DNA of 28,338 nucleotides from an uncultured Deferribacteres bacterium (GCA_964014485.1 CAXHAT010000095.1:1-28338), one strand, 5' to 3'; shown: positions 1 through 22,935, counted from the stretch's first letter. Notes: generated from the letters alone by a model not told the origin. Numbers and translations: made by a program.

Positions 1-44
1 CACCAAGAAGCTCGTCGGCAGCGTCAGATGTGTATAAGAGACAG
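1..44 (+). other. Untrimmed Illumina Nextera i5/Read 1 adapter (sequencing artefact)
   Basis: 12-44 is exactly TCGTCGGCAGCGTC-AGATGTGTATAAGAGACAG (Tn5 mosaic end at 26-44). It is preceded by CAC (end of P5) and an 8-nt index-like CAAGAAGC. Confidence 0.98.
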
Positions 45-815
45 GTATCGTCGAACACCGTCGAGTCGGCGGGCAGACTGGCAATTTGGACGAAGGCGCC
101 GCTCGTGTCCTGCTTTTCGAGATAAAAACCGTCCTCGTTATCAGCGCCGTCCGTCCATGAAATTTGCAAGGAAAGAAAACCCGTCGGCGTGACCGTAAGA
201 TTTGTCGGCACGACCGGCGGCAACGGCAAATCGGTCTCCGCCGAGTCCGCGTTTGAATAAGGCGAAAGTCCGCCCGCGTTGTAAGCGGCGACGCGGAAAA
301 AGTAGACCGAATTTGGAACCAGGGAACTGTCGCGCCAAGTCGTGACGTTGGCGCCAACGCTGTCGGCGGCTGCAAAAGTTCCCGGCTGCCCGGCGTTCAG
401 CGAATCTTCCGGCGCGCGTTCGATGTGAAAGCCGTCCTCATCGTCCGACAAATCCAGCCAGTTCAAATCGATGGAGCCGCGCCCGGTGGAAGAAGCGATC
501 AGCGTATCCGGCGCGGCGGGCGGAATCGGGGCGCCCGAAGCGACCGCGACCTCGGCGCTGTAATCCGAAATGATCACGCCGTTTTGCGCGCGCAGGCGAT
601 AAATGTAATTGGTGAACGGCAAAAGACCGTTCATGCCATCGTCGAGAAATGAAACGTTCGGCGCGACGGTCGTTCCAACTTCCGCGAAAACGCCGCCGCT
701 TGTTTTTCTCTCCACCAAAAAACTATCCGCGTTGGCCACTGCGTCGTTCCACGAGAGCGAAATGCGCAGACTGTCCTGGGCTTGCGCGAAAACGCTGGCA
801 GGCGCGACCGGGTTG
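45..815 (-). repeat. Fibronectin type III array 4 (2 full units plus 1 truncated, more diverged)
   Basis: ISLSWND...FLVERK...YIYRLRAQN; IDLNWLDLSDDEDGFHIER...YFFRVAAYN; LQISWTDGADNEDGFYLEK cut at the contig end. Confidence 0.82.
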
Positions 816-3800
816 CCGCCGTTCTTGATCACCGTGAACGAATCGAGTTCGACGCCTTCCATTTTGCGGTAAAAGCCGGTCAATTCGTAGCCGTCAAGAT
901 CGATGACCGAAAAGCCGTTGAAAGGCGAATCCTGCTGGAAGGCCATGTTCCAGATTGGCGGCTTGGCGTCGTCGTTCCGCCCGCCTGTTCCAACCGTGAC
1001 GTACATGGTCGCCGCGGTCGTGTCATCCTTGGTGTAATAATTCGGATCGTTCTGAAAAATCGCGCCGTCGCTCATTAAATATGTGCGTTCGTAGCGGTGC
1101 TTGTCGCCGGAAAAAGTCATGTCCACGCCGTTGGCTTCGAGCACGGGCACAAGCTGTGTGGAAATATTTTCTCCGGAAAACTCCGGCGGAAGATGAAAAA
1201 AGGCGAAAATCCACTGCGCGCCGTTGGCTTTGGCGGCGTTGACGTCGTCGGGAATCCATGCCAGCATTTCGTCCCAGTCCGCGCCGCTGGTTGTGCCGTC
1301 GGAAACGTAGAGACAGATGAAATGGGCAAAACCGTAATCAAAGGAATAGTAATTTTCCGTGTTGACCGGATTGTTGGTCGGTAAGTGAAAGAATTCGTAG
1401 TAGCCCTCGCCGTTCGCGCTCTGCATGTCGTGGTTGCCGATGGTCGGCCAGAACACGGTATTGCGCAGCGTCGGTGCGTAGACGTTGAAATATTTCGGTT
1501 CGTAATCGTCGCGCTTGCCGTTGTCGTAAACCACGTCGCCGAGAATCAAGCCAAACTTGGCGCGCGGATTGATCAGCTCAATCTGCGGCGCCGTGTCAAG
1601 CTGAAACTGCGACAAATCGCCCATGTCGCCCATGGCGAAAAAGCGGAAATTTTGCGTTGCGCCGACCGTCGGATGAGTCTCGAAATAATAATTATCCCCT
1701 CCGGCGTATTCTTCCTGCGGCGAGCCGACCGAGTAATAATAGCGCGTATTCGGCGCGAGCCCGCTCAGGCGCACCACGTGCGAATCGCTCGGCGCGGTGT
1801 TGATCGTCGTGGTGAGATTGTTCGGCGCCGGGCCGTACTGGAACACGCCGTTGCTGGAACTGGTCGTGTACCAGGTGACGATGGCTTCCGTATCGGTGAC
1901 GTTCTGCAAGTACGGCGCGATGTAAAGCCCCGCCGGACTGAGCGTCGCTTCGCTGACTTCGGCGGTGTAAGCCGAGTAGCCGCCCGCGTTCGAGGCGCGC
2001 ACGCGATAAGTGTAGGTCGTCGTCGGGTCGAGATTGACGTCGGAATAACTGATGCTGTTGGCGGGCAATGTCGCGATCTCGCTGTACGCCGAAATGCCCT
2101 GTTTTCGCTCGACGTGATAATTCGCTTCGTCGGTCGCGTTGTCGAGCCAGGTCAAATTCAACTGGCTGGCGCTTGGCGCGGTCACTTCGAGCGTGGTCGG
2201 ATCGGCGGGGGGATACGGCAGGGTCGTGTCGCTCGCCTCGTTGCTGTAGTTGGAAACGCCCGCGACGTTGGTCGCGCGCACGCGGTAAATGTAGGTCGTG
2301 CCCGCGATCACCGCCGTGTCGGCGTAGCTTGTCGTATTTGTCGCCAAAACAATGAGTTGCGCAAACGCAGAATCCGCCGGAAGCTTGCGCTCGATTTCAT
2401 AATTCGCTTCGTCGGTCGCGTTGTCGATCCAGGTCAAATCGATCTGGCTGTGGCCGCTTTCCGTCGCGGTCAGCGAAGTCGGCGTGGCGGGCGGATAAGG
2501 CAAAGTCGTGGCGTTCGCTTCATTGCTGAAATCGGAATTGCCGCCGGAATTTGAAGCGAAAACGCGGTAAACGTAATTCGTCTCAGCGGTCAAGCCTGTG
2601 TCGGAAAACGCCGTTGTGTTCGCGGGATTGCTGGCGATTTCCGAAAATGCGCCGGCCCCGGTTTTTCTTTCAACTTTGTACGACGTTTCGTTGTCTGCGT
2701 TATCCGTCCAAGTTAGATCGATTTGGGTCGCGCCATTCTCAGATGCAGTCAACGATGTTGGAGCCGCCGCGGGCCAAGCCAACGTGGTCGCGTTCGCTTC
2801 GTTGCTGTTGGGTGAATCGCCGCCGTCGTTGGTCGCACGCACGCGGTACGTGTAGGTCGCCGCCGCATTCAATCCTGTGTCAGAAAAACTTGTTGCATTC
2901 GCCGCAGCCGTCGCGATTTCGACAAAATTGCCGTCGCCAGTGTGGCGCTCGATTTTGAAGCCGGTCTCATCGTTGGCGTTGTCCGTCCACGCAAGATCGA
3001 TTTGCGTCTGGCCGTTTTCCGTCGCGATTAAAGCGGTCGGCGCCGCTGGCGGGTAAGGCAGAGTCGTCGCGCTGGATTCATTGCTGTTTTGCGAATCGCC
3101 GCCACTGTTGCTCGCGCGCACGCGGTACGTGTAGCCCGTCTCAACCGTCAAGCCCGTGTCGGAAAACGCCGTCGTGTTGGGCGCGAGACTCGCAATTTCC
3201 GTAAACGCGCCCGCCCCGCTTTTGCGCTCAATTTTCAACGCCGTCTCGTTGTCGGCGTTATCCGTCCAACTCAAATCAATCTGCGCATTGCTGATCGCCG
3301 TCGCCGTCAAAGCGGTAGGCGCGACAGGTGGGAACGGCAAAGTCGTGGCCGAAGCTTCGTTGCCGTAGCCGGAATTGCCGCCGTTGTTCGTCGCTTGCAC
3401 GCGGTAGGTGTAAGTCGTCGCCGAGGTCAGGCCCGTGTCGGAAAACGCCGTCGCGTTCGCCGCGACCGCCGCGATTTCGGCGAAATTGCCGTCGCCGTCG
3501 TGGCGTTCGATGGAAAAGCCGTTTTCGTCGTCGGAATTGTCCGTCCAGGCGAGATCAATTTGGGTCTGGCCGTTTTCCGTCGCTGTCAGAGCGCTGGGGG
3601 CGCCGGGCGGATAAGGCAGCGTCGTGCCGGAAGCTTCGTTTGAATAAGCCGAAAAACCGCCCGTGTTGGAGGCGCGCACGCGGTATTCGTGCGTTTCTAA
3701 TTCGCTCAAACCCGTCTGCGACCAGTCCGTCGTGTCCGCACCGACGGTCGCGATTTCCACATAATTGCCGCCGTCCTTTCTTTCAATATGAAAAGTCGTT

Positions 3801-6800
3801 TCGCTGCCGGAATTGTCCGTCCAGTTCAAATCGAGCTCGGTCGCGCTCGCCGCCGTTACGCTCAACCCGGTCGGTGCGGCGGGCGGCAACGGTAAAGTCG
3901 TCGCGCTGGTTTCGCCGGAGTAGCTCGAATGGCCGTCATCGTTGGCCGCGCGGATGCGGTAGGTGTAGCTCGTGTCGTCGCTCAAGCCCGTGTCGCCGTA
4001 ACTTTCCACGCCAGGCCCGGTCGTGGCGATTTCAGCGAATGATCCGCCGCCGGTTTTGCGCTCGATTTTAAAGCCAGTCTCACCGCTTGAATTATCCGTC
4101 CACGTCAAATCAATCTGCGAACTGCTCACTGCCGCCGCCGCTCCTTGGCTCGGCGCACCGAGGGTCGTCGCGGAAGCTTCATTGCTGTAACCCGAAGCGC
4201 CGAAAGCGTTGTTCGCCAAAATTCGGTAAGTATAGCCCGTATTCGCGGCGACGCTATTGTCGCTGTAATTGGTTGCATTCGCGGATAACGTCGCGATTTC
4301 CACAAAAGCGCCCGCGCCGGTTTTGCGCTCGACTTTGTACTCGGATTCGGTGTTGGCGTTGTCCGTCCAGGTCAAATCGATTTGTCCGCTGCTGACCACA
4401 ACCGCAGCCGCACCGCTCGGCGTTGCTGGGGGATCAGGCGGGATGTCCGTCGTCGCCGAAGCTTCCCCGCTGTAGCCGGAATTTCCAGCGTCGTTGCTCG
4501 CGCTGACGCGGTAGGTGTAGGCCGTGTTTGGCGACAGTCCGGAATCATTGAAACTGGTCACATTTTCACCGACGGTCGCGATTTCGACGAACGCGCCTAC
4601 GCCGGTTTTGCGCTGGATGCGGTAGCCGGTTTCGTCTGAATTGTCCGACCAGCTCAAATCGATTTGATCGTAGCCGTTCTCGGTCGCGGTCAGCCCGACG
4701 GGCGTGTTGGGTAGTGGAACGCCGCCGCCGTTGAAAATCTGCACCTCGAAAATCTTGTAGGACGAACTGCTGCGCCCCTGGGTCATGTAAAGTCGTGCGT
4801 AGCGTCCGGTCGCTGGAGCAATGGTAAAATCATCGCTTCCTTCGTCGGCTTTTGTGGTATCGAAAACGGTCGTCCAGTTCACATCGTCGTCGGAGATCTG
4901 GAATTGGTAGACCTCGGCGTAGTTGTCTTCGTTCCAGTCGATCACGACGCGGCTGAAAGTCTGCGGTTGGCCAAAATCAACCTTGAGCCATTCCTCCGCG
5001 ACGTCATCGCTTTTCCAATACGAACCGCCGTCAGCGTCGAATGCAAATTCAGCGAACAAGTCATCGTTGTCGGATGAAGCCGTGTAAGTTTGGTTAAGCG
5101 CAATATTAGCGACAACGGCTTCCGACGTGGTCGCCGAAGCTTCTCCGCTGTAATCGGAAAACAAATCGTTATTGTAGGCGCGCACGCGGTAGGTGTAGGT
5201 CGTTTGCGCGCTCAGGCCGTTGTCCTGAAAGAAAATCTCGTTCGCCGCGACGGTCGCGATTTGGATAAAATTGCCGTCGCCGTCGTGACGCTCGATGTGA
5301 AAGCCGTCCTCGTCGCTGGAATTGTCCGTCCACCAGAGCTCAATTTGCGAACTGCCGGTTGCGCTCGCCGACAAAGCGCCGGGGGCTGTTGGCGGCGGGG
5401 GCGGCGGATCCGTCGTCGCGGCGGCTTCGCTGCTGTAGCCGGAATCGCCGACGTCGTTGCTCGCCTTCACGCGGTAGGTGTAGGTCGTGTTCGGATCAAG
5501 TCCCGTGTCGCTGTAATTTGTGATATTGGCGCCGAGAGAGGCGATCTCCGAAAAATTTCCGTCGCCGCCGTGGCGTTCGATTTTGAAGCTGTTCTCGTTG
5601 TCGGCGTTGTCCGTCCAGCTCAAATCGATCTGAACATGATCGAAAGTCGTCGCCGTCAAACCGCTCGGCGCGGCGGGCGGCGGCGGGGGCGGACCGGTGG
5701 TCGCCGAAGCATCGCTCGTGTAACTCGAATGTCCGAAAGCGTTCGTCGCTTTGACGCGATACGTATAGGTCGTGCTCGCGTTCAAACCCGTGTCATTGTA
5801 AGAAATTTCATTCGCGCCCAGCGATGCGATCTCGACGAAATTGCCGTCTCCTGCGTGGCGCTCGATTTTGAAATTGTCTTCGTCATTCGAATTGTCCGTC
5901 CAGGCCAAATCGATTTGGGTGTGATCGAACGTCGTCGCCGTTAAATCGCTCGGCGCATTTGGCGGCGGCGGCGGCGCGTCGGTGGTCGCGGAAGCTTCGT
6001 TGCTGTAGCCGGAATCGCCAATGTCGTTGGTCGCACGCACGCGGTAAGTGTAGGTCGTCGTGTGATTCAAGCCCGTGCCCGAGAAGCTCGTCACGTTCGC
6101 GCCGACCATCGCGATTTCGGCAAAACTCCCCGCTCCGGTTTTGCGCTCAATTTTGAAGCCGGTCTCGTTGTCGGCGTTGTCCGCCCAGCTTAAATCAATT
6201 TTGGAAGTATCGACCGTCGTCGCCGCCAAAGCCGTCGGTGCGGCGGGCGGAACGGCGGGAACATCGGTGGTCGCGCTCGCTTCGTTGCTGTAGCCGGAAT
6301 TACCGGTCGCGTTGGTCGCGCGCACGCGGTAAGTGTAGGTCGTGCCTGAGTTTAGACCTGTATCGCTAAAACTCGTGACGTTACCGCCGACAGTCGCGAC
6401 TTCCGCGAAAGCGCCTGCGCCGGTCTTGCGTTCGATACTGTAACCGGTCTCATTATTTGCATTGTCCGCCCAACTTAAATCGATCTGAGCATCGCCGTTC
6501 GCGGTCGCCGTCAGCGTCGTCGGCGCGCTCGGCAAAGCGTTGGGATCGCCGCCGTTGCTGTAAACTTCGAATTCATAAAGTTTGTACTTGGTCTCGTTGT
6601 TGATCGTCATCCAGAGACGCACGTACTGCGCGACGACCGGCGGAAAAGCCATTTCATCAGCGCCTTTGTCAAAACGCGTTCCGGTGACCGCGTCCGCCCA
6701 ATTGACGTCGTCGGTCGAGATCTGAACCGCAAATTCCTGGGCATAATTTTTACTGCGCCAATCGATAAAAACGCTGTCAACGACCATCCATTGGCCGAGA

Positions 6801-9800
6801 TCGACCTTGAGCCATTCCGCTTCGCCCGCCGTTGCGTCGTTGCTTTCCCACATGGTTTCCGAATCGCCGTCCGTGCCCATTTCCGGCGCGGAATCACTGT
6901 CCGTGGAAGAAGCCGTCGTCGGTTTGTTCAGCGCCTGGTTGGCGTTCGGGTCGATGGACTCGCTGTCCGTGGTCGCGGACGACTCGTTTGAATAGCCGGA
7001 ATCGCCGTCGCCGTTGGTTGCGCGCACGCGATACGTGTAGGTCGCGGTCGCGCTCAACCCTGTGTCGCTGTAAGAAACCGCGTCCGCCGCAACAGTCGCG
7101 ATTTCAGCGAAATTACCGTCACCGGCGTGGCGCTCAATTTTGAAGCCGGTCTCGTTGTTTGCATTGTCCGTCCAGGCCAGATCAATTTGCTCGGAGCCGT
7201 TTGCCGTCGCCAAAAGCGTCGTCGGCGCGGCGGGCGGATTCGGCGCGGCGTCTGTTGTCGCCGAGGCTTCGTTGGAATTACCCGAATCACCGTCGCCGTT
7301 GGTCGCCCGGACGCGGTAAGTGTAAGTTACGCCTGAATTTAAGCCCGTGTCGTTGTAAGAAACTGAGTTCGTGGCAATGGTTGCGATTTCGGCGAAATTG
7401 CCGTCGCCTGCATGGCGCTCAATTTTGAAGCCGCTTTCGTTATCGGCGTTGTCCGTCCAGGTTAAATCGATTTGGTTTTGACCGTTTGCCGCCGCCGTCA
7501 AACTGCTCGGCGCAGCGGGCGGATTCGGCAGTGCATCGGTGGTTGCGGCAGCTTCATTTGAATAATTTGAGTCGCCGTCATCATTGTTGGCGCGGACGCG
7601 GTAAGTGTAAGTCGTGCTCGCGTCAAGGCCGGAATCGGTGTAAGAAGCCGCGTTGGCGGCAGCGGTTGCAATCTGCGCAAAATTGCCGTCCCCGGCGTGG
7701 CGCTCAATTTTAAAACCGGTCTCGTTGTCGGCGTTGTCTGTCCAGTCCAAATTGACTTGTGAAGTTCCGGCGGAAACCGCGGTCAAACTCGAAGGCGCGG
7801 CGGGCGGATTCGGCAGCGCATCGGTGGTTGCGCCGGCTTCATTTGAAAAATTGGAATCGCCGTCGTCGTTATTCGCGCGGACGCGGTAAGTGTAGCTCGC
7901 GTCCGGATTTAGGCCGGAATCGCTGAATGAATTGGCGTTTGCAGCCGCGGTCGCAATTTGGGCGAAATTGCCGTCGCCTGCATGGCGCTCGATTTTAAAG
8001 CCGGTTTCGTTGTCGGCGTTGTCCGTCCAGTTCAAATTGATTTGTGAAGTTCCGGCGGTCGTCGCGCTTAAGCTGGAAGGCGCGGCGGGCGGATCGAGCG
8101 TGGTCGCCGAAGCTTCGTTGGAAAAATTTGAATCGCCGTCATTGTTCGTCGCGCGGACGCGGTAAGTGTAAGTCACGCCCTGGCTCAGACCGGCGTCGTT
8201 GTAATTCGTCGCGTTCGCGCTCGTCGTCGCGATTTGCGCAAAATTGCCGTCGCCGTCGTGGCGCTCAATTTTGAAGCCGGTTTCGTTGCCGGAATTGTCC
8301 GTCCAGGTTAAATCGATTTGGGTCGTTCCGCTCGTGCTCGCCGCAAGCGTCGTCGGCGCGGCGGGGGGATTCAGCGTGGTCGCGGAACTTTCGTTTGAAA
8401 AATTGGAATCGCCGTTGCCGTTGTAGGCGCGCACGCGATAAGTATAAGTTACGCCTGCGCCCAAGCCTGTGTCGTTGTAGCTAACCGCGTCGGCGGCAAC
8501 GGTTGCGATCTGCGCGAAATTGCCGTCGCCGGAATGGCGTTCGATTTTGAAGCCGTCTTCGTCGAAAGCGTTGTCCGTCCAGGCCAAATCAATTTGATTA
8601 GTCCCGTTCGCCGTCGCCGCAAGCGCCGTTGGCGCGACGGGCGGACCGGTCGTCGTTGCGGAAGATTCGTTTGAGTTGTCGGAATCGCCGTTGCCGTTGT
8701 AGGCGCGCACGCGATAAGTATAAGTTACGCCTGCGCCCAAGCCTGTGTCGTTGTAGCTAACCGCGTCGGCGGTAACGGTTGCGATTTGCGTGAAATTGCC
8801 GTCCCCGGCGTGGCGCTCAATTTTGAAGCCGTCTTCACCGGCAGCGTTGTCCGTCCAGGCAAGATCGATTTGGGATGCGCCGTTGGCCGTCGCGGAAAGC
8901 GCGGTTGGTGCGGCGGGCGGATCGAAGCCGGTTTTGGTCATCGTGAAAGCGTCGATGTCCGTGCCGTCGCTCATGCGGAAAAAAGCGTTCAATGTGCTGC
9001 CGTTGACGTCCACGACGAACAAGCCGTTGAGTTCATCGGGATGCTGGTAAGCCATTTCCGGCGCATCAGGACGGGGATTGTCGCTCTTCCCCCCCGCCCC
9101 GCTGGTGACGTAAATCGTGCCGTCGCCGAACTGATTTTTGGTGTAGCCGGTGGTGTTGCCGTCAATGACAAGACCGTCGTGCATTAAAAACGTGCGTTCA
9201 TAAACGTGCTCGTCGCCGGAAAAAGTCATGTCCACGCCGTGCGTTTCGAGAATCGGCACCAGATTTTCCCAGGCAAAGCTCTTGTGCCACTCAACCGGGT
9301 AGTGAAAGGTCGCGAACAGCCATTTCACCCCGCGCGCTTTGGCGGCTGCAAGATCGGCGTCCAGCCAGTCGAGCATCACGGTCAATTCGGGATCTTCGAC
9401 TGACACTTCGCCGTCAATGCAAGCAAAGTGCGCCGGACCGTAATCGAAAGAATAGTAATTTTCGACGGCGGGCGGGTTGTTGGTCGGCAAATGGAAGAAT
9501 TCAAAATAGGCTTCACCGGCGTTGGTGCCAATATCATGGTTGCCGAGCACGGGCCAGAAAACTGAGTTGCGAATGATGTTCTGGTAAACGTCGAAAAACT
9601 TCGCTTTGTAGTCCTCGCGCTTGCCGTCAACATAAACAACGTCGCCAAGAATGAGCGAAAATTCCGCGCGCGGCGAAAGATTTTCGAGCTGCGTCGCAAC
9701 ATCCGCCTGCTCATCGGAGCCGTTGCCCATGTCGCCCATGGCGATGAATCGAATGCTTTGTGAAGCGCCGGTCACGGGGTGCGTGTCGAAAAAATAGTCC

Positions 9801-10117
9801 GTACCGCCGGCATAAGTTTGGGCGGGCGAGCCGACGCTATAATAATAACGTGTGTTTGGCGTAAGACCGGTAAGCGTGACAACGTGAACCAGATCGTTGG
9901 CCACGTTGATCGTCGAGTCCAGGTTTGCTGAGTCGGTTCCGAACTTAAAAACGCCGTCGGTGGCGGAAACGGTGTACCAGACGATGACGGCTTGCGTGTC
10001 CGAGGTGTTCTGGACGTACGGCCCCATGTCGAGCTGGGCAAAGGACGGTGAAGCCCAAGCGATGACGGCGAGAACGGTAAACCACAGTCGAGACGCAGTG
10101 CGAGGTGCGGTATGCAT
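45..10117 (-). CDS. Giant secreted multidomain protein, 3'-truncated (>3350 aa): signal peptide - PAP-like metallophosphoesterase - 7xFN3 - F5/8C - 5xFN3 - F5/8C - 10xFN3 - second PAP-like metallophosphoesterase - at least 3xFN3
   Basis: ATG at 10117 with GAAGGA RBS upstream; N-terminus MHTAPRTASRLWFTVLAVIAWASPSFA/Q is signal-peptide-like. The same frame was confirmed at 10117, 9217, 1108 and 49. It reads into the adapter without a stop, which explains its absence from the ORF track. Domains were read from manual translation. Confidence 0.93.
822..1920 (-). other. Purple acid phosphatase-like module 2 within the giant CDS
   Basis: APYLQN...HVVRLSGLAPNTRYYYSVG, FFAMGDMG, LGDVVY, WPTIGNHD, YYSFDYG, FAFFHLP, TFSGDKHRYER, MYVTVGTGG; colinear with module 1. 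Confidence 0.9.
1940..4715 (-). repeat. Fibronectin type III tandem array 3 (10 units, ~268-284 bp period)
   Basis: WxDN motifs near 4645, 4361, 4093, 3814, 3538, 3259, 2981, 2701, 2423, 2141. Confidence 0.88.
4735..5110 (-). other. F5/8 type C (discoidin/CBM32-like) domain 2 within the giant CDS
   Basis: NIALNQTYTASS...AFDADGGSYWKS...EWLKVDFG...IDW...QISDDDVNWTTV...GRYARL...IFEVQIF. Confidence 0.88.
5125..6535 (-). repeat. Fibronectin type III tandem array 2 (5 units, ~285 bp period)
   Basis: Same FN3 consensus; W(A/T)DN recurs near 6464, 6178, 5893, 5608, 5325. Confidence 0.9.
6560..6940 (-). other. F5/8 type C (discoidin/CBM32-like) domain 1 within the giant CDS
   Basis: NQALNKPTTASS...TDGDSETMWES...EWLKVDLG...IDW...QISTDDVNW...AQYVRL...LYEFEVY. 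Confidence 0.88.
6970..8920 (-). repeat. Fibronectin type III tandem array 1 (7 units, ~276-286 bp period)
   Basis: Repeating PAAPTxLxAxxxxxxQIDLxWTDNxxxExGFKIER...YxYRVRAxNxxGDSxxSNExxATT; WTD codons recur near 8850, 8573, 8296, 8020, 7736, 7451, 7165. Confidence 0.9.
8930..10024 (-). other. Purple acid phosphatase-like module 1 (N-terminal FN3-like subdomain plus calcineurin-like metallophosphoesterase) within the giant CDS
   Basis: GPYVQN...HVVTLTGLTPNTRYYYSVG, then FIAMGDMG, LGDVVY, WPVLGNHD, YYSFDYG, FATFHYP, TFSGDEHVYER, IYVTSGAGG. Confidence 0.9.
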
Positions 10118-10268
10118 TTTGTTGATTTTCCTTCGTTTAACGGATGTTTGATGCAAGATCAAAACGTACCGGTTTCACAGCATCCGGGACGAAGCTCACT
10201 TTTGGCGTTGTCGAATTGTTTAGGCGAATAATCGAAGCTCTGCGAGAGGCGAATTGGGGGGCGGTGAG

Positions 10269-10361
10269 CAGTAGTTAGTGATTAGTCATTAGTAAATAGT
10301 TATTCGTCGGCTTTGATTCGCCGCGTACGACTACTTACTAATCACAAATGACTATTTACTG
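10269..10361. repeat. Inverted pair of 7-bp tandem repeat tracts
   Basis: AGTAGTT AGTGATT AGTCATT AGTAAAT AGTTATT (10270-10304) and ACTACTT ACTAATC ACAAATG ACTATTT ACTG (10330-10361). Confidence 0.75.
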
Positions 10362-10624
10362 AAAAACAGAGCGCCGTTCCAAATATCGCCTTTTGTGCGA
10401 AACTGCCGCACTCCGTCCGTGGAAGGAAAACGCGAGAATCCGTTCTCGCAATCAGATGATGAATTACGTGCTTCGAGACGAGTTTGCGAACGACTAAAGA
10501 TTGGGATGCGACGAAATTCTTATTCAAAGATAAGCCGCTTGCATTTTCCGAGGCGGCATTGAACATTACTCGCGCCGCTTGGTCTTTTGCTGGAAAATTC
10601 AGCACTCCTTTTTATTTTAAAGCT

Positions 10625-11875
10625 ATGCTTAAAAATTATACAAACCGCATCTTTTGTCTTATCGCTTTTTTCGCGTTTGCGGCGGAGAGTTCAGCGCGCA
10701 TTTTGGAAGATTGGCCGCAGTGGCTTGGAACGAATCGCGATGGGCGTTCCGTTGAAACCGGATTATTGAAATCCTGGCCAAGCGGCGGGCCCCAAGAACT
10801 TTGGCGCAAATCAATCGGCGAGGGATTTTCGGGAATCGCGGTCGTTGGAGACCGCGCATTTACCATGGTTGCGCGCGACGGCGATGAATTTGCGATTTGT
10901 CTCAACGCTTCAAACGGCGAAGAGACCTGGAAAACGCGCACAGGTAAAAACTTCCGCATAAGTTGGGGCAACGGCCCGCGCGCCACGCCGGTCGTTGACG
11001 GAAACGTTGTTTATGTCGCGGGCGCCAACGCGAGCCTTTTTGCACTGGCGGCAAATTCCGGTGAAATTCTTTGGAAAAAAGACCTGCGGCAGGAACTGGG
11101 CGGGACTATGCCGGATTTGGGTTACTCAAACTCTCCTCTCATCGTCGACGATCTCTTGCTGATTCCCGTAGGCGGCGGCAGCGGGCGCGGCGTTTACGCC
11201 TTTAATAAAACGACCGGCGAGGTTGTCTGGAAAACGCATACGGATCATCCCGGCTATTCGTCGCCGGTACTCGCAACGATTCACGGCGTGCGGCAGGCGG
11301 TGTTTTTTACCGGGAACAAGATTGTCTCGGTCGCGCCTGCGTCCGGGGAAACGCTCTGGCAATTTTCCTGGCGAGCCATCGGCTACGAAGCCGAGAATGT
11401 CGCCACGCCGGTCTTCGTCTCGTCGAACGAAATTTTCTTTTCTTCCGCTCATGCAGCGACTGACAAAGGCGCGGGCGTTTTGCGCATCTCAAAAAACGGC
11501 GATCGCTTTGAAGCAAAACCCGCCTGGCAAAGCAACGTGATGAAAAACCATTTTTCGACTTCGGTTTTCCACGACGGCTTTATTTACGGCACGGACAAGT
11601 CAATTTTGAAGTGCATCGATTCACAAACCGGCGAGGAGAAATGGCGCACGCGCGGCTACGGCGAAGGCTCGCTCATTTTCGCGGACGGCCATTTGTATAT
11701 CATGGGAACTCGTGGCAAACTTGGACTCGTAGAAGCAACCTCGAGCAACTATCGCGAAAAGTCGTCGTTTCAAGCGGTGCGCGGCAAATCCTACACGCCC
11801 CCGTCGATTGCAAACGGCAGGATTTATGTCCGGAGTCAGGGAGAGATGGCTTGTTTTCTTATTGTAGAAGATTAG
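10625..11875 (+). CDS. PQQ-binding-like (BamB-family) beta-propeller protein, secreted
   Basis: Signal peptide after ATG 10625; DWPQWLGTNRDG, GPRATP, YSSP, repeated GExxW blades, YTPPSIANGRIYVR. Start moved from TTG 10484 of the ORF track. Confidence 0.9.
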   Translation: MLKNYTNRIFCLIAFFAFAAESSARILEDWPQWLGTNRDGRSVETGLLKSWPSGGPQELWRKSIGEGFSGIAVVGDRAFTMVARDGDEFAICLNASNGEETWKTRTGKNFRISWGNGPRATPVVDGNVVYVAGANASLFALAANSGEILWKKDLRQELGGTMPDLGYSNSPLIVDDLLLIPVGGGSGRGVYAFNKTTGEVVWKTHTDHPGYSSPVLATIHGVRQAVFFTGNKIVSVAPASGETLWQFSWRAIGYEAENVATPVFVSSNEIFFSSAHAATDKGAGVLRISKNGDRFEAKPAWQSNVMKNHFSTSVFHDGFIYGTDKSILKCIDSQTGEEKWRTRGYGEGSLIFADGHLYIMGTRGKLGLVEATSSNYREKSSFQAVRGKSYTPPSIANGRIYVRSQGEMACFLIVED

Positions 11876-11954
11876 GCCGAAGGTTTTAGGATGTTAGCAT
11901 CTGTTGGACTGTTCTCTACAATGCTCGACAAAAGCGTTCGAGCAGAATTTTTCT

Positions 11955-11995
11955 AAACGCAGAGACGGAATGGACACTGAGAAGCGCAGAGAAAA
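11955..11995. repeat. ACGCAGAG-type intergenic repeat unit
   Basis: AAACGCAGAGAC...GAAGCGCAGAGAAAA, related to copies at 13241-13287 and 21487-21640. Confidence 0.55.
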
Positions 11996-12104
11996 TTAAA
12001 TTGTAACTGATGTTACGCGCCAGCTTCATAATACAGCAGCATTTTATCAAAGTCATTCGGCGGCGCCGCCCTACCGCCAACCTAATTTCGAGACGCCCAA
12101 AATT

Positions 12105-12228
12105 CTCGTTCCCAATCTCGGGATTGGGAACGCAATTGCACTCGAAACTCCAGTTTCGAGTGAATACTTTGGCTCGAAACTGGAGTTTCGCGCCCATTTT
12201 CATTCCCAAACCGGAGTTTGGGAACGAG
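12105..12228. repeat. REP/MITE-like four-hairpin palindromic element
   Basis: Terminal CTCGTTCCCAA...TTGGGAACGAG inverted repeats; inner CGAAACTCCAGTTTCG / CGAAACTGGAGTTTCG hairpins. Confidence 0.85.
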
Positions 12229-12233
12229 CCGTA

Positions 12234-12404
12234 AACTCGTGGCAAACTTGGACTCGTTGAAGCAACCTCGAGCAACTATCGCGAAAAGTCGTCGTTTCAA
12301 ACGGTGCGCGGCAAATCCTACACGCCCCCTTCGATTGCAAACGGCAGGATTTATGTCCGGAGTCAGGGCGAGATGGCTTGTTTTCTTATTAAAGGCGATT
12401 AGGC
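12234..12404 (+). pseudogene. Orphan copy of the 3' end of the upstream beta-propeller gene (11707-11877)
   Basis: 157 bp with 4 mismatches at offset 527, then a diverged hexamer and shared GATTAGGC including the stop. Translates as TRGKLGLVEATSSNYREKSSFQTVRGKSYTPPSIANGRIYVRSQGEMACFLIKGD* with no start. Confidence 0.88.
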
Positions 12405-12620
12405 TGCAGGCTGATCGTAGCAAAATTCAGGTGGAATCTGAAGCGCAGTTTATTTTAAAAAGCCGTCCGAAATGTCATTCAGGAGGAATCTATTTTGCAC
12501 ACGGCGAACGAACGAACCTTTTTGCTGAAGATTCCGCGAGGCGTTTGACGCCCTTTTATTGCGCATGAAATGTGCGAAAAGTTATACTTCGATTGAATAA
12601 ATTCTCAGGAGCGCAAAACT

Positions 12621-13208
12621 ATGGCAGCAAGAAACGTCAAAACCGCCGTCAAATTGATTGAAGAAGCATGGGCTAAACGCTGGGAAACGATGAAATCGCC
12701 GCCAGATTCGAAAGAAGAATTGCAACGAAACGTCGATGAAGTGCATCAGAATCTTGTCGAGGCGGTTGCAATTTGCCGCGAGACCGGAGCGAAGCGCGAG
12801 TTGGTTCATGCGCTCAGAAAACTCGGTCACGTCGAGCAAGCCGCGGGGCGAGAAGAAGCAGCCCGGGCTTTGTATGAAGAAGCCGTCGCCGTCAGTCGCC
12901 AGCAAGAAGATTCGCTGCTATTGGCGCATTCGGTCAGACATTTGGGAGACGTTTATCGGGAAGCTGGCAAGGCGGCCGAGGCCGAAGCCAATTATAATGA
13001 AGCTTTGGCGCTCTATCGCAAGCACGGGCAGCCGCCTGCGCTCGATTTTGCCAATACGATCCGGCCGATGGCGATCTTGAAAGAAGAGGCGGCAATGATC
13101 GAGGAAGCCAAGAATCTGTGGCGAGAAGCGCGGGATTTATACGAACAAGTCGGCATTGAGGAAGGCGTTAAAGAATGCTCGGATCATTTGGCGCAATTGA
13201 GCAAGTAA
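12621..13208 (+). CDS. Tetratricopeptide repeat protein
   Basis: AGGAG RBS; helical repeats ALRKLGHV...A...YEEAV and SVRHLGDVY...AEAEANYNEALALYR. Confidence 0.85.
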   Translation: MAARNVKTAVKLIEEAWAKRWETMKSPPDSKEELQRNVDEVHQNLVEAVAICRETGAKRELVHALRKLGHVEQAAGREEAARALYEEAVAVSRQQEDSLLLAHSVRHLGDVYREAGKAAEAEANYNEALALYRKHGQPPALDFANTIRPMAILKEEAAMIEEAKNLWREARDLYEQVGIEEGVKECSDHLAQLSK

Positions 13209-13215
13209 CAACAAC

Positions 13216-13352
13216 GGAGTGCAAGGCTTGCCTTGCATTTTTGCAAAACTCCGCGAAGCTCTCCGAACTTTGCGTCTCTGCGTTAAGTTACGAGGTTGAA
13301 TGACCGCACTTAATTTGTTCCGGCTTGAAAGGCAAAGCAAGCTTTGCACTCC
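13216..13352. repeat. GGAGTGC...GCACTCC inverted-repeat element (copy 1) with an internal ACGCAGAG-type repeat
   Basis: GGAGTGCAAGGCTTGCCTTGC ... GCAAAGCAAGCTTTGCACTCC; inner 13241-13287 is nearly the reverse complement of 21487-21532. Confidence 0.82.
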
Positions 13353-13406
13353 TTTTTCATGCCGTCGTTAGCAATTGAACCAAACCAAATCTCACTGAGG
13401 ATAATT

Positions 13407-14627
13407 ATGCGATTGACAACAATATTTTTCATAGGACTTTTGTCACTGCCCGCCTTTGCCGCTGAAAAAAACGCTGACTGGCCGCAGTGGCGCGGGCCAA
13501 ATCGTGACGGCGTTTCGCAAGAAAGCGGATTGTTGAAAAAATGGCCGGAAAACGGGCCGAAACAACTCTGGCGCGTTTCAACCGGCAAAGGCTTCTCCAG
13601 CGTCGTCGTTGCCGGCGGGAAGGTTTACGGCGCATGGGCCAAAGGCAATTATGAAGAATTGATTTGTCTGGACGAAAAGAGCGGCGAACAACTGTGGAAA
13701 CATCGTCTCGGAACCGTTTTTGTCAACGAAATGGGAAGCGGCCCGCGTTCTTCGCCGATTGTCGACGACGGCTTGGTTTATGCTATTGGCGCACGCGGGA
13801 ACCTTCACGCCGTTGACGCGAAAAGCGGAGAAAAAGCCTGGAGCCGAAACTTAACGCGCGAATACGGCACGCGCATTCCGCGTTGGGGCTATTCTTCATC
13901 GCCGTTGGTTGAAGGCAATTTATTGTTGGTTGAATTGGGCGGCAAACGCGGTTACGCTTTCGCCGCTTTCGACAAAAAAACGGGCAACATTGTCTGGCAT
14001 TCAGAAAGCGATCAGCCCGGTTATTCATCGCCGATCGTCATCACAATGCACGGGAAAAAGCAGGTCGTTTTTTTTAGCGCTTACGGCCTGCAAGCCTTGT
14101 CGCTGGACGACGGCAAACTGCTCTGGAAACATTCCTGGGACACAAACTACAATGTCAACGCCGCCATTCCGCTTTTTTATCCGCCAAACAATATTTTGAT
14201 TTCTTCATCTTATGGGGTTGGCGCGGCACTGGTCGAAGTCAACAAAAGCGGCGGGAGATTCGAAACGAAACAGGCGTGGTTTACCAAACGTTTCAAGAAT
14301 CACTTCAATTCTTCCGTTCTGATCGGCGACTATGTCTACGGCTTTGATAATGCAATTTTGAAGTGCCTTGACGTGCGCACGGGCGAAGAAAAATGGAAGG
14401 CGCGCGGCTTCAGCAAAGGTTCGCTCATCGCCGCCGACGGCAAATTGATCGTGCTTGGCGAACAGGGCAGGCTGGCGCTGGTTGAAGCGACGCCCGACGA
14501 GTATCAGGAAATCTCCAGTTTTCAACCTTTGAGCGGAAAATGCTGGTCGTCGCCTTCGCTGGCGAACGGCAGACTTTACGTTCTCAATGAAAAAGAGCTT
14601 ATCTCGTTCGATATTCGCTCGAAATAA
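13407..14627 (+). CDS. PQQ-binding-like (BamB-family) beta-propeller protein, secreted; paralog of 10625-11875
   Basis: GAGGA RBS before ATG 13407; signal peptide ending AFA; DWPQWRGPNRDG, GPRSSP, GYSSSP, KNHFNSSV, WSSPSLANGRLYV. Confidence 0.9.
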   Translation: MRLTTIFFIGLLSLPAFAAEKNADWPQWRGPNRDGVSQESGLLKKWPENGPKQLWRVSTGKGFSSVVVAGGKVYGAWAKGNYEELICLDEKSGEQLWKHRLGTVFVNEMGSGPRSSPIVDDGLVYAIGARGNLHAVDAKSGEKAWSRNLTREYGTRIPRWGYSSSPLVEGNLLLVELGGKRGYAFAAFDKKTGNIVWHSESDQPGYSSPIVITMHGKKQVVFFSAYGLQALSLDDGKLLWKHSWDTNYNVNAAIPLFYPPNNILISSSYGVGAALVEVNKSGGRFETKQAWFTKRFKNHFNSSVLIGDYVYGFDNAILKCLDVRTGEEKWKARGFSKGSLIAADGKLIVLGEQGRLALVEATPDEYQEISSFQPLSGKCWSSPSLANGRLYVLNEKELISFDIRSK

Positions 14628-14692
14628 AAAATTGCTTTGCTATCGTGCCGCCGCATTTTGGACTGTGACTTACAAATTGATATGTTTCTTTC

Positions 14693-14763
14693 GTCATTCC
14701 CGCGCAGGCGGAAATCTTTTGACTTTGAACAACTTTCTGGGTTCCCGCCTGCGCGGGAATGGC
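14693..14763. repeat. GTCATTCCCGC-type palindromic repeat element
   Basis: GTCATTCCCGCGCAGGCGGAAATC ... GGTTCCCGCCTGCGCGGGAATGGC inverted pair. Confidence 0.85.
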
Positions 14764-14812
14764 AGTTTACAAGAAAAACGATTCCAAAAATTTGTAGGAG
14801 AATACCGGAAAA

Positions 14813-16966
14813 ATGAGTTTAAAAATGAACATAAAAAGCGTCTTTTGCACGCTGTTGATTTTAATGATTCCTTCACTAGCGGCGGCGCAAGAAGAGCCGA
14901 TCACGTTTTATGATCACACCGACACGCTCGTTGTTGAGGCGGATCGCGTGATTCAATTACCGACTTACAGCACGATTGCCTCCAAGCTGCCAATTGAATT
15001 GCGAAACACCCCCGCAAGCATCGGCGTCGTCCCGCAATCGCTGTTCATCAACCAGGCAAGTTTCATTTTGAGCGACGCATTGAGCAACGTCAGCGGCGTA
15101 AATATTCAGTCCAATTTTGGCGTGCATGATTTCTTTCTGATTCGCGGATTCAGTTCTGTCGACAACGGCATGGTGATGACGGACGGCGCGATTGAGCCGG
15201 AAGCAATGTATTACCATCTTTACAATATTGAGCGCGTTGAGGTGCTCAAAGGCCCGGCGGCGTTTCTTTACGGCGGCAATCCGATTTCAGGCGTGGTCAA
15301 CCTGACGCGCAAACAGCCGATTTTCACCAATTTTCTCAAAGCCAACGGCTCGTTCGGGCATTTCAATACGATGCGCGGCTCCGTCGATCTTGGCTTGGGC
15401 GACCTCGAATCCGGCTTTGCTTTTCGTCTGAACGGTTTGGCAATGGATTCTGAAAATTATCGCGACGGCACCGACAACCGCAGGCTGGCGATCAATCCTT
15501 CGCTCACTTGGTTGATCAACGACAATACGTCGCTGACGGCCAACATTGAGGTCGTTGACAACGATTACGCTCCGGATTCCGGCGTGCCTTTGATGCGCAT
15601 CAGCCTGGAAGGCCCGCCGATTGTGCCGGATATTCCGCGCACGCGCTCTTACCAATTGCCCGTCGACCGCTCCGACCAAAACGCGCTGCGCTCTCGCGTC
15701 GATTTTTATTCTGAATTGAACGAAACGGTCACGGTTCGCAACAAGTTTTATTACACCGATTTAGACTGGAATTCAGCGGGCACGCTTTTGCTCGGCGTCG
15801 CTCCGGACATTGAAGGCAATCCGACTGTTTTCCGCACGGTGCAAAGCCTTGACGACCGCCAGAAGTTTCTGGGCAATCAACTGGAGTTTTTGCTTAAAGC
15901 CAACACTGGCTCCGTCAAGCACAATATCGTCGCGGGCTTTGAAGCGCAGCAATACAAGGACGATTTTGATCTGCAAATTGCACAAGTCAATCCGGTTCCG
16001 CTGTTCACTGATTTTCAGGAATCGGTCACGAGCCTGGATCAATTGCAATTCGCGCCGTTTGCTGCCGGAAAAGCCAAGAGTACTGTAATAGCCCCGTACT
16101 TTGTCGATCAAATCACGCTGGCCAAGCAGGCGCAGCTTTTCATCGGCGGGCGCTACGACGTGATTGATTACGAAAACAACCGCTCCGATTTCGATTTCAT
16201 GACGTTCATGCCTGTCGCTTCCGTCGACACGCGCGACTACAAAAAATTCAGCCCGATGGCAGGATTGAACATCGCCCCGTCCGAGGATTTTTCGCTCTAT
16301 TTTAGCGCGGGTCAGGCTTTTGCGCCGCCTTCGACTTTGACGCAAGGCGATCCCGAACCGGAGGAAACAACGCAAATCGAAGCTGGCGCGAAAATGCGTT
16401 TTTCCGACGGCAAAGTCCATGCGACATTCGCCGTGTATAATTTGGAAAAGAAGAATATCGGCATTCCCGACCAAACCGGCGTTTTGCAGCAGACGGGCGA
16501 TCAACGTTCACGCGGACTTGAATTTGAATTGCGCGCGCTGCCGGCGGAAAAGCTTTTTACTTCGTTTTCCTACGCCTACACCGACGCCGAACTCACCAAC
16601 TTTACCGAGTTCATCCAAATCAGTCAAACGGCTTTCCAGCTCGTCGATTACTCGGACAATAAATCCCCCTTCGCGCCGGATCACATTTTCAATTTTTGGG
16701 CGACAAAAGAATTGCGTAACGGCATTGGCTTTGGCGGCGGTGCGCGCTACGTCAGCGGCCAATTTATCGATGAAGACAACGCCTTTGAAATCGATCCCAC
16801 GCTCACTTTGAACGGCATTTTATTCTTCAATCAGGGCAATTGGCGCTGGACGCTAAACGCCAAGAACATCACCAATCGCAAAACCTTCGTTCGCGGCTTC
16901 AGCAATTCTTCGGTGATTCCGGCCGATCCTTTCACAATTTACGGCGGCGTTGAATTCTCGCTCTAA
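14813..16966 (+). CDS. TonB-dependent receptor (siderophore-receptor-like)
   Basis: Signal peptide, TonB-box-like DTLVVEA, plug motifs TPASIGVV / IRGF / NIERVEVLKGPAAFLYG...GVVNL, NAKNITN near the C-terminus, terminal beta-strand YGGVEFSL. Start may be 14825. Confidence 0.93.
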   Translation: MSLKMNIKSVFCTLLILMIPSLAAAQEEPITFYDHTDTLVVEADRVIQLPTYSTIASKLPIELRNTPASIGVVPQSLFINQASFILSDALSNVSGVNIQSNFGVHDFFLIRGFSSVDNGMVMTDGAIEPEAMYYHLYNIERVEVLKGPAAFLYGGNPISGVVNLTRKQPIFTNFLKANGSFGHFNTMRGSVDLGLGDLESGFAFRLNGLAMDSENYRDGTDNRRLAINPSLTWLINDNTSLTANIEVVDNDYAPDSGVPLMRISLEGPPIVPDIPRTRSYQLPVDRSDQNALRSRVDFYSELNETVTVRNKFYYTDLDWNSAGTLLLGVAPDIEGNPTVFRTVQSLDDRQKFLGNQLEFLLKANTGSVKHNIVAGFEAQQYKDDFDLQIAQVNPVPLFTDFQESVTSLDQLQFAPFAAGKAKSTVIAPYFVDQITLAKQAQLFIGGRYDVIDYENNRSDFDFMTFMPVASVDTRDYKKFSPMAGLNIAPSEDFSLYFSAGQAFAPPSTLTQGDPEPEETTQIEAGAKMRFSDGKVHATFAVYNLEKKNIGIPDQTGVLQQTGDQRSRGLEFELRALPAEKLFTSFSYAYTDAELTNFTEFIQISQTAFQLVDYSDNKSPFAPDHIFNFWATKELRNGIGFGGGARYVSGQFIDEDNAFEIDPTLTLNGILFFNQGNWRWTLNAKNITNRKTFVRGFSNSSVIPADPFTIYGGVEFSL

Positions 16967-17103: not shown

Positions 17104-17383
17104 CACGCGCGATAAAAAGAATGTGGATAACTTGCACCTTGTCCCGAAGGGACAGTCGAAAATAGCCAGCCAATTCATTGGCTGGACTAAAGTTAAGCCT
17201 GATTTTCATAAAGTCCCGTAAGGGACGATTGAAGTTCGGCGTCGTGTAAAAACCTCGGTCGTCCCTGCCGGGACTTCACTCGAAAAAACGGCTGATTCCT
17301 CTCCCGCCAGTCAACTGGCGGGCTATTCTCGACCGTCCCTCCGGGACTGATTTGAGTTATCCACAACCTTTTTATCGCGCGTG
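17104..17383. mobile_element. 280-bp non-autonomous MITE-like element with 29-bp terminal inverted repeats and an 11-bp flanking direct repeat
   Basis: TIR CACGCGCGATAAAAAG(AA/GT)TGTGGATAACT (27/29 match); CGAATGGATCG at 17093-17103 and 17384-17394; no transposase ORF. Confidence 0.8.
17141..17347. repeat. GTCCC-N-GGGAC type REP-like palindrome cluster inside the MITE
   Basis: GTCCCGAAGGGAC, GTCCCGTAAGGGAC, GTCCCTGCCGGGAC, GTCCCTCCGGGAC, plus symmetric AATAGCC.../...GGCTATT hairpins. Confidence 0.8.
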
Positions 17384-19259: not shown

Positions 19260-19514
19260 ATGAAGTGGATCGAAATAAAAAAGCAATATCCGGACAAATT
19301 CATTCTTTTGGGTGATCTCGTCGAAGAGCCGGTTGCCAAAAATAAATTCAGGATAGTTGAAGGCAAGGTCCTTAAAGTCAGCGATGATCCAAAGGAAATC
19401 ATGGCCGCGTACCAACAGCTTAATAAAGCCGGTCAAAACGTCCTGTTTTCGCTTCCGACAACACCAAAAGACTTTGTTATCGAAAACGTCCCGTACAAAG
19501 GCGTTCTTAAATGA
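19260..19514 (+). CDS. Small hypothetical protein (DUF5678-like)
   Basis: GAGGAG RBS; MKWIEIKKQYPDKFILL...GKVLKVSDD pattern; ATGA overlap with the next gene. Confidence 0.7.
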   Translation: MKWIEIKKQYPDKFILLGDLVEEPVAKNKFRIVEGKVLKVSDDPKEIMAAYQQLNKAGQNVLFSLPTTPKDFVIENVPYKGVLK

Positions 19515-19894
19515 ATTTTCGATGGGGTCACGGGTTGATCTGGGTAAACTTTGAGGTTGAATACGCTCAAAAAGTTTATCAGATCAAAGATTGCATTATT
19601 GATACTGGTTCCGCCACAACAGCGGTACATACCGACGCTGTTGAATTTGATTTAAGAAGAGGCGGAATCTTAAAACGTCTGGTTGGAATCGGCGGTGGCA
19701 GACAAGAAGTCGTAACTCAAATGGTTGATAGATTTATCATTGACAAGACTGAATTCAACCAGATTGAAATCGAATTCGGCAATCTTCAAGACGAATTCGG
19801 CGTCAACGGATTTGTCGGAAACGACATTCTAAAACATTTCGTCGTCGCCATTGACTATCCACGGCAACAAATTGATTTTACTTTTGTGGAATGA
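19511..19894 (+). CDS. Retropepsin-like (clan AA) aspartic protease
   Basis: CIIDTGSATT catalytic motif, glycine-rich flap VGIGGG, NGFVGNDIL C-terminal motif, 127 aa single lobe. Confidence 0.88.
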   Translation: MNFRWGHGLIWVNFEVEYAQKVYQIKDCIIDTGSATTAVHTDAVEFDLRRGGILKRLVGIGGGRQEVVTQMVDRFIIDKTEFNQIEIEFGNLQDEFGVNGFVGNDILKHFVVAIDYPRQQIDFTFVE

Positions 19895-19920
19895 TAAAGA
19901 CGTCTTGTTTGGAGTTGTTC

Positions 19921-22909: not shown

Positions 22910-22935
22910 TCCCAAAACCAATGGGGGTGAATGAT

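Follow-up and report, generated by a model that had tools for sequence, protein, structure and literature searches.

Locus and gene structure

The DNA analysed here (the window; 28,338 nucleotides) is the entire contig C95 from the assembly of an uncultured Deferribacteres bacterium (GCA_964014485.1; CAXHAT010000095.1:1-28338). A giant gene on its minus strand, which runs off the contig end, encodes a protein in which two purple acid phosphatase (PAP)-like modules are set far apart in an array of fibronectin type III (FN3) repeats and two F5/8 type C (CBM32-like) domains (Table 1). Both modules carry the same two rare active-site changes, a histidine-to-aspartate exchange and a shortened loop. 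The host assembly comprises 8.40 Mb in 465 contigs (50.2% GC, 97% completeness, 0.8% contamination), and the host is an uncultured marine FCB-group bacterium, probably of the KSB1/Zhuqueibacterota, the name borne by the nearest named relatives of the PAP-like module (PMC11683472).

Translation of the window gave a minus-strand frame free of stop codons from 10162 to 2, with an ATG at 10117, from which the residues are numbered, and an AGGA 11 nt upstream of this ATG. From base composition, 3357 stop-free codons would be expected by chance with a probability of about e^-116. The protein opens with MHTAPRTASRLWFTVLAVIAWASPSFAQ, which contains two arginine residues, a hydrophobic core, S-F-A before the likely cleavage site and no cysteine; this Sec-type signal peptide was judged from the sequence by eye rather than with a signal-peptide predictor.

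Bases 1-44 are untrimmed Nextera adaptor; its 19-base motif at 26-44 has 152 occurrences near contig ends of the same assembly, and among Logan read contigs matched to the window a depth of >500,000 was confined to the first bin. The final 14 residues of the translation (CLLYTSDAADELLG) are hence an artefact, and about 3357 genuine residues are left, with the C terminus missing and the chain cut inside FN3 repeat 25. Adaptor with index also remains at the ends of about 130 other contigs, where it yields false C- or N-terminal peptides in edge genes. A Logan contig of sequencing run X1 matched positions 45-494 without mismatch and continued for 272 bases beyond position 45; the giant gene is therefore longer than the contig shows. 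Its end did not overlap with any of four 5'-truncated fragments of the genome that run from FN3 repeats to a tail (C159, C283, C414 and C448). C283 also ends in adaptor and begins about seven to eight residues later in the FN3 phase, an observation that is suggestive only. A longer copy of the gene was found neither by a protein scan nor by an exact 48-nt scan of metagenome contigs, the exact translation was absent from a collection of 15 billion proteins, and the giant protein was not among the 53 hits of a search for relatives of 1854-5901 aa.

A scan for sigma-70 promoters upstream of the giant gene returned 0 sites. The 366-nt divergent intergenic region upstream of it contains an AT-rich imperfect inverted repeat (10269-10361; 32-nt arms, 81% complementary, 29 nt apart) that is unique in the genome. 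Four antisense open reading frames (ORFs) within the giant gene (184-389 aa) had no Pfam match and were dismissed as by-products of GC-rich repeats.

Domain organisation

All Pfam families found in the giant protein scored above their cut-offs: fn3 with 682.9 bits (22 stretches), Pur_ac_phosph_N with 189.9 bits, Metallophos with 86.2 bits and F5_F8_type_C with 111.9 bits (two stretches each). By using a repeat profile built from the protein itself, 24 whole FN3 units and one cut unit were delimited, with exactly 22 between the two PAP-like modules; these tandem domains are about 90 residues long and show pairwise identities of 30-82%. The second module continues the reading frame of FN3 22 and lacks a separate signal peptide. 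With a net charge of about -284, the mature chain is very acidic; it contains two cysteine residues. The best PDB matches of the first CBM32-like domain were the CBM32 discoidin domains of a Paenibacillus glucanase/chitosanase (4zy9 and 2rv9; E 4e-16), and YeCBM32 and an alginate-lyase CBM32 were also among the matches; the nearest solved relatives bind chitosan, pectate or alginate. A search of NCBIfam with the PAP and CBM segments gave no family above cut-off.

A first-pass annotation of this DNA had described a single open frame of >3350 residues with a signal peptide, two PAP-like modules, about 25 FN3 repeats, 22 of them between the heads, and two F5/8 type C domains assigned to CBM32. 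The stop-free frame, the signal sequence read at residues 1-28, the Pfam scores, the repeat profile and the PDB matches bear this description out, and its picture of a secreted stalk holds. The accompanying stalk length of about 80 nm is geometry from presumed FN3 dimensions and not a measurement, and the idea that the heads act at two distances from the cell presupposes a C-terminal anchor beyond the contig end.

Fold and family of the PAP-like modules

By domain order, both modules are assigned to the PAP-like metallophosphoesterases (PF16656 + PF00149). The family is very large: 14,900 representative clusters are related to the module at E <= 1e-3, of which 1,686 remain at E <= 1e-30, and the representative cluster nearest to the module is 48% identical to it. 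A PDB sequence search with the module returned only plant and animal PAPs, with wheat purple acid phytase as the best match (E 1e-14). The fold was tested on module 1, for which an AlphaFold2 model was obtained with a predicted local distance difference test score (pLDDT) of 85.8. Foldseek placed lupin PPD1 (3zk4; E 6e-27) at the top, then wheat phytase (6gja) and the sweet potato and bean PAPs; ranks 1-21 were all plant PAPs, and PhoD came at rank 24. The kidney bean, sweet potato, wheat and lupin enzymes share the fold of module 1 (E 6e-27 to 1e-22, template-modelling scores of 0.64-0.72) and six of the seven ligands, at an identity of only 17-19%; they differ from it in that the giant protein has aspartate at the first histidine of GHxH, and they are dimers or oligomers of single modules.

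The structural ranking bears on whether the heads might cleave diesters, as phosphodiesterases or nucleases, in preference to monoesters, with extracellular DNA or phosphodiester-linked glycans as targets and the remodelled loop setting specificity. PPD1, the best match, is a diphosphonucleotide phosphatase for which DNA degradation is reported (PMC4062093); the mycobacterial relative Rv2577 hydrolyses bis-p-nitrophenyl phosphate (bis-pNPP) (PMC7642983); and CBM32 domains would bring such heads to glycans. No sign of a diester preference was obtained at the level of residues, and we regard this specificity as rather improbable.

The two modules are 49.6% identical to each other and were sisters in a quick IQ-TREE phylogeny (Shimodaira-Hasegawa-like approximate likelihood ratio test, 99), with branch lengths of 0.40 and 0.57 as against 0.50-0.55 for canonical sisters. 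Judged from these comparisons, they arose by internal duplication.

Active sites

An alignment of 197 modules combined the two of the giant protein with the modules of the 150 best representatives and of the PAP-bearing proteins within the set of 53 long hits. In both modules of the giant, and in these two of the 197 only, the first histidine of GHxH is replaced by aspartate (SGDEHVYER in module 1, SGDKHRYER in module 2); 194 of the 195 other modules keep histidine there and one has serine. The ligand positions are D129, D159, Y162, N193, H272, D302 (histidine in relatives) and H304 in module 1, and D2831, D2861, Y2864, N2895, H2975, D3005 (histidine in relatives) and H3007 in module 2. Six of the seven canonical ligands, together with GNHD and YER, are thus kept in each module, and neither has the full seven-ligand set of the PAP family. 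The loop that follows motif 4 (family consensus PPYSxG[ST]HxxD) is also five residues short in both; columns conserved as tyrosine (96%), aspartate (91%) and arginine (91%) are lost there in both modules, and a glycine column (91%) is lost in module 1. Of the 57 columns with at least 90% conservation across the family, 49 are retained in each module, a value at about the 5th percentile (49.7; family median 55). The PAP paralogs of the same genome have GH[SN]H. Among 11 related loci the motif pattern matched four, all GH[SN]H; the other seven were missed by the pattern and were not read by eye. Locus L004, from the unpublished G023, contributed one row to the tree and to the scan for motifs; none of the conclusions depends on it.

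In plant PAPs the loop lost here would carry a phosphate-binding histidine, and a role of the loop after motif 4 in substrate choice is familiar from plant and Clostridium enzymes. Aspartate is itself a metal ligand; alanine is not. The first-pass annotation had both heads hydrolyse phosphoesters; the PAP modules themselves stand, and their hydrolytic activity is not secure, given that the exchange and the loop loss affect both. In Rv2577, alanine at the same histidine (H385A) abolished activity (PMC7642983).

These data raise the question of whether the heads are pseudo-enzymes that retain the fold, and perhaps a metal or phosphate site, without catalysis, in which case the protein would mainly be an adhesin or matrix fibre with heads and CBM32 domains serving for binding only. 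The near-invariant histidine is lost in both copies, the loop is shortened in both, the Rv2577 alanine mutant is dead, and canonical PAP modules are present on other proteins of the genome, so that a loss of activity here could be tolerated. Against this, aspartate can take part in metal binding, the other six ligands, GNHD and YER survive in both copies at about 50% divergence, and neither branch is accelerated. Pseudo-enzymes are considered doubtful. An altered but working active site, which we hold to be moderately probable, is favoured over a dead one, which carries the same doubt as the pseudo-enzyme explanation, because aspartate can ligate metal where alanine cannot.

The simplest account of the sequences would be that the active-site changes arose once, that the module was then duplicated within the gene, and that both copies were kept under selection; continued selection after the change is suggested by the retention of 49 of the 57 conserved columns at 49.6% identity and by the ordinary branch lengths. 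Since both heads share the histidine-to-aspartate exchange and the five-residue loop loss, an altered metal or substrate preference would be expected rather than a textbook acid phosphatase.

Integrity of the assembly

A giant gene rich in repeats could have been assembled wrongly, and the two-headed gene could be a chimera in which an FN3-rich gene with a PAP at its N terminus was joined, inside the array, to a second such gene whose PAP is internal. The genome is a fragmented short-read metagenome-assembled genome at about 5x depth and contains many FN3 paralogs. The FN3 units of the giant gene are 60-77% identical, that is, 23-40% different, at the DNA level, and the gene holds one exact repeat of >=33 nt only (92 nt; 8405-8496 = 8681-8772). 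This repeat lies between the adjacent FN3 units 2 and 1, which are otherwise 75-81% identical, and may reflect recent gene conversion or local smoothing by the assembler. In run X1, C>T variants were seen at 8257 and 8434. None of the 51-mers of the giant gene recurs in the rest of the genome; of its 9981 41-mers, just 9 do.

Runs X1-X3, which belong to one marine-metagenome study, contain identical pieces of the gene, with depths of no more than about 5x. Since the assembly was probably made from X1, the match is not independent support. Within the array, Logan contigs (k=31) showed three skip-type joints (2022->3463, 5204->5573 and, in run X2, 7261 back to 6675) and two joints with inserted letters (5598->3810 in X1 and 5691->5961 in X4). 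Each is a single contig with sides mostly <30 nt (53 nt for the X2 joint), and joints with a side <30 often stem from repeats or from other organisms. The X2 joint, a low-depth contig at the border of the first CBM32-like domain and FN3 7, may represent a strain variant or a join to a paralog.

Depth, paralogs, the exact repeat and the few joints are what speak for a chimera; the divergence of the FN3 units and the near-absence of shared k-mers speak against it, the single-contig joints weigh little, and two PAP modules that are sisters with the same two rare active-site changes fit one gene lineage. Mis-assembly of the FN3 array is unlikely, and a chimeric origin of the two-headed gene is regarded as highly improbable.

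Related proteins and distribution

Among the 150 best representatives, 12 contain two full PAP modules, 135 contain one, and three contain none or a fragment; their median length is 892 aa, and 15 of the 150 reach at least 1800 aa. In the search for proteins of 1854-5901 aa, 36 of the 53 hits cover most of the module profile and two have two modules. P0002, one of the 36, is a paralog from the host genome itself, and the same identity holds for P0056, P0069 and P0080. The first-pass annotation had not recognised the architecture as one already described and had taken few accessory modules to be usual for bacterial PAP-type enzymes. In the light of the dual-module counts the architecture is not unprecedented, and the median length makes accessory modules the rule.

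The 12 metagenomic dual-PAP proteins (P0005, 3400 aa; P0096, 3991 aa; P0057, P0063, P0064, P0068, P0070, P0071, P0076, P0082, P0097 and P0101) resemble the giant in that a single secreted chain of many domains includes a complete PAP module twice; two of them end in a type IX secretion system (T9SS)-type tail. They differ in that none has an F5/8 type C domain or an FN3 array (a single fn3 occurs in one only), their spacers being of the Big_7, cadherin-like or He_PIG type, and all have canonical GHxH. The 2328 residues between the PAP modules of the giant are the largest spacing seen. Of the 13 dual proteins placed in the tree, 10 have modules that are each other's sisters, with P0057/P0003, P0070 and P0076 as exceptions; doubling has therefore occurred many times independently, inside genes.

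Giant PAP-bearing proteins occur in several phyla, and none was found to be characterised. In 166 other genomes of the phylum, the PAP subclade (E <= 1e-90) was confined to two families of one order, with occupancies of 1 of 9 and 14 of 19 genomes and identities of <=48%, and two PAP matches in one open frame were found in none of them. A relative from the same order, P0059, combines a PAP with 9 PKD domains, 3 CBM96 domains and a tail. P0058 (3323 aa) and P0100 (4190 aa) have about 20 tandem copies of the FN3-like N-terminal domain of PAP without a phosphoesterase domain; the PAP N-domain therefore also serves as a plain stalk repeat. The literature searched contained no account of two PAP modules in one bacterial protein, nor of PAP, FN3 and CBM32 in combination. 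The two-headed PAP design is thus one that recurs but has not been characterised, and the shared active-site remodelling, which the first-pass annotation had missed, is its most interesting feature here.

The nearest characterised counterpart is Rv2577/MapH (MmpE) of Mycobacterium tuberculosis, which like the modules of the giant has PF16656 + PF00149 and a five-motif binuclear site and is secreted or located in the cell wall. It is a proven phosphatase and phosphodiesterase that hydrolyses p-nitrophenyl phosphate (pNPP) as well as bis-pNPP; with about 530 aa it is a one-module protein whose motif is a canonical GHEH and whose signal is of the Tat type (PMC7642983). In the giant there are two modules, each with GD[EK]H and with the loop that follows motif 4 shortened; the signal is of the Sec type, and FN3 and CBM32 domains make up about 2600 residues. 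Very long, repeat-rich T9SS surface proteins with a C-terminal sorting domain are represented by SprB and RemA of Flavobacterium, which are adhesins without enzyme heads.

Paralogs and type IX secretion

At least eight FN3/CBM32 or PAP paralogs are encoded in the same genome, and all eight complete ones end in Por_Secre_tail (Table 1); where FN3 repeats are present, the order is head-(FN3)n-CBM32-...-CBM32-tail. They have the FN3/CBM32 chassis and the proline-rich linkers in common with the giant, and carry one canonical PAP or other heads (phytase-like, alpha/beta-hydrolase-like or beta-helix); none has two PAPs or the aspartate. The 454-aa head of the C183 protein (in locus L094) matched Phytase PF02333 just above the cut-off of 21 (23.1 bits), and four Bacillus beta-propeller phytases led its PDB matches (E 0.015-0.04). 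Canonical PAP modules are found on three of the paralogs. The chassis would accordingly be one that repeatedly carries heads predicted to release phosphorus. The FN3/CBM32/T9SS-tail family also takes in C159, C283, C414, C448 and C286; with four 5'-truncated fragments and one other 3'-truncated fragment, FN3/CBM32 genes are seen to break the assembly.

Matches in the genome numbered at least 150 for Por_Secre_tail and four for PorP_SprF, and there was one for SprA_N (150 bits). Because all eight complete FN3/CBM32 or PAP paralogs end in Por_Secre_tail, a sorting domain of the YPNPFN type is likely, by analogy, on the giant protein as well.

Table 1. Features of the giant gene in the window (residue ranges in brackets) and complete paralogs encoded elsewhere in the host genome.
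Sequence	Feature	Position	Strand	Length	Basis or remark
Window	Adaptor	1..44	.		Not biological; encodes the false last 14 residues
Window	Start codon and Sec-type signal peptide (1-28)	10034..10117	-		By eye; AGGA upstream
Window	PAP-like module 1 (29-399), FN3-like N-domain and metallophosphoesterase domain	8921..10033	-		Pfam, PDB search, AlphaFold2, Foldseek
Window	Codon GAC, Asp302, at the first His of GHxH in module 1	9212..9214	-		Motif alignment
Window	FN3 repeats 1-7 (400-1050), Pro-rich linkers between	6968..8920	-		Pfam, repeat profile
Window	F5/8 type C (CBM32-like) domain 1 (1060-1195)	6533..6940	-		Pfam; PDB 4zy9, 2rv9
Window	FN3 repeats 8-12 (1196-1664)	5126..6532	-		Repeat profile
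Window	F5/8 type C (CBM32-like) domain 2 (1671-1802)	4712..5107	-		Pfam
Window	FN3 repeats 13-22 (1803-2725)	1943..4711	-		Repeat profile
Window	PAP-like module 2 (2728-3102)	812..1936	-		Pfam, motifs
Window	Codon GAC, Asp3005, same substitution in module 2	1103..1105	-		Motif alignment
Window	FN3 repeats 23-24 (3103-3295) and first 59 residues of repeat 25 (3300-3358)	45..811	-		Repeat profile
C183	26 FN3, 5 CBM32, T9SS tail	4759-14982	-	3408 aa	
C30	T9SS tail			2688 aa	404-aa head without Pfam match
C212	PAP and beta-helix, T9SS tail			2587 aa	
C92	Internal PAP, T9SS tail			2266 aa	835-aa head without Pfam match
C66	T9SS tail			1954 aa	508-aa head, weak SGL match below cut-off
C100	Alpha/beta-hydrolase-like head, T9SS tail			1728 aa	
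C271	PAP, T9SS tail			1316 aa	219-aa head without Pfam match
C178	PAP and tail only			503 aa	Nearest paralog of both modules, 45-46% identity

Neighbouring genes

The remainder of the window encodes BamB-like propellers, TPR proteins, TonB receptors, an SSF transporter, small T9SS-tailed proteins and a sulfatase, and these neighbours fit a particle-degrading lifestyle. Two Acido-Lenti-1 RNA motifs (RF01687; gathering score 37), at 17140-17185 (-) and 17303-17348 (+) with 41.3 and 48.9 bits, face each other between a TonB-dependent receptor gene and a sodium:solute symporter gene. Weak T9SS-tail matches were found in the products of 19891-21420 (+) and 22921-23874 (+) (FlgD_ig, 29 bits; Por_Secre_tail, 23.8 bits), which flank a TraB/GumN-family gene. 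An ORF of 127 aa at 19511-19894 had no Pfam match.

Proposed function

We consider it moderately probable that the giant is exported by the type IX system, binds glycans along its stalk and serves, by means of its two remodelled phosphoesterase heads, in the scavenging of organic phosphorus. Export would begin through Sec by means of the N-terminal signal. The missing C terminus, to go by every complete paralog, would consist of further FN3 repeats, a CBM32 domain and a T9SS sorting domain, and through this tail the protein would pass the T9SS and be held on, or shed from, the cell surface. The stalk would extend by its FN3 repeats and proline-rich linkers, with module 2 nearer to the cell and module 1 about 22 FN3 and two CBM32 domains further out; the CBM32 domains would hold it on glycan-rich particles or matrix, where the two heads would act on phosphate esters and the phosphate released could be taken up.

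Several observations weigh against this proposal. The histidine exchanged in both heads is kept in practically all other modules, conserved loop columns are gone, overall conservation lies low in the family, and the corresponding alanine mutant of Rv2577 is inactive. The neighbours of the giant gene are not phosphate genes and show no phosphate regulon. GldM_1st had no match in the 97%-complete genome, and no sorting domain is seen on the giant protein, as the contig ends first, inside FN3 25.

A bolder and distinctly tentative suggestion is that modules with GD[EK]H and the short loop form a new functional subclass of the PAP fold, which might use another divalent metal, act on a new substrate or be a phosphate-ester-binding "lectin". 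The giant would display two of them, about 85 nm from each other, along a stalk that grips glycans, and might then be the extreme member of a lineage-specific T9SS "enzyme-on-a-stalk" set in which a common FN3/CBM32 chassis bears heads of the PAP, phytase-like or esterase-like type and with which this KSB1-type bacterium would mine organic phosphorus from marine particles.

The recycling of marine organic phosphorus is usually credited to enzymes of the PhoA, PhoX, PhoD and PafA types. To our knowledge, bacterial PAP-like enzymes have barely been studied, and the 14,900 clusters related to the PAP module include many on long surface stalks. Together with its paralogs, the giant protein suggests that an uncultured FCB-group lineage may display phosphoesterases on glycan-binding stalks by way of the T9SS, as Bacteroidota do glycanases. 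The shared histidine-to-aspartate change is a natural experiment on the choice of metal and substrate in the PAP fold. The module has doubled repeatedly and independently (10 of 13 dual proteins), which prompts one to ask what a protein gains from a second head.

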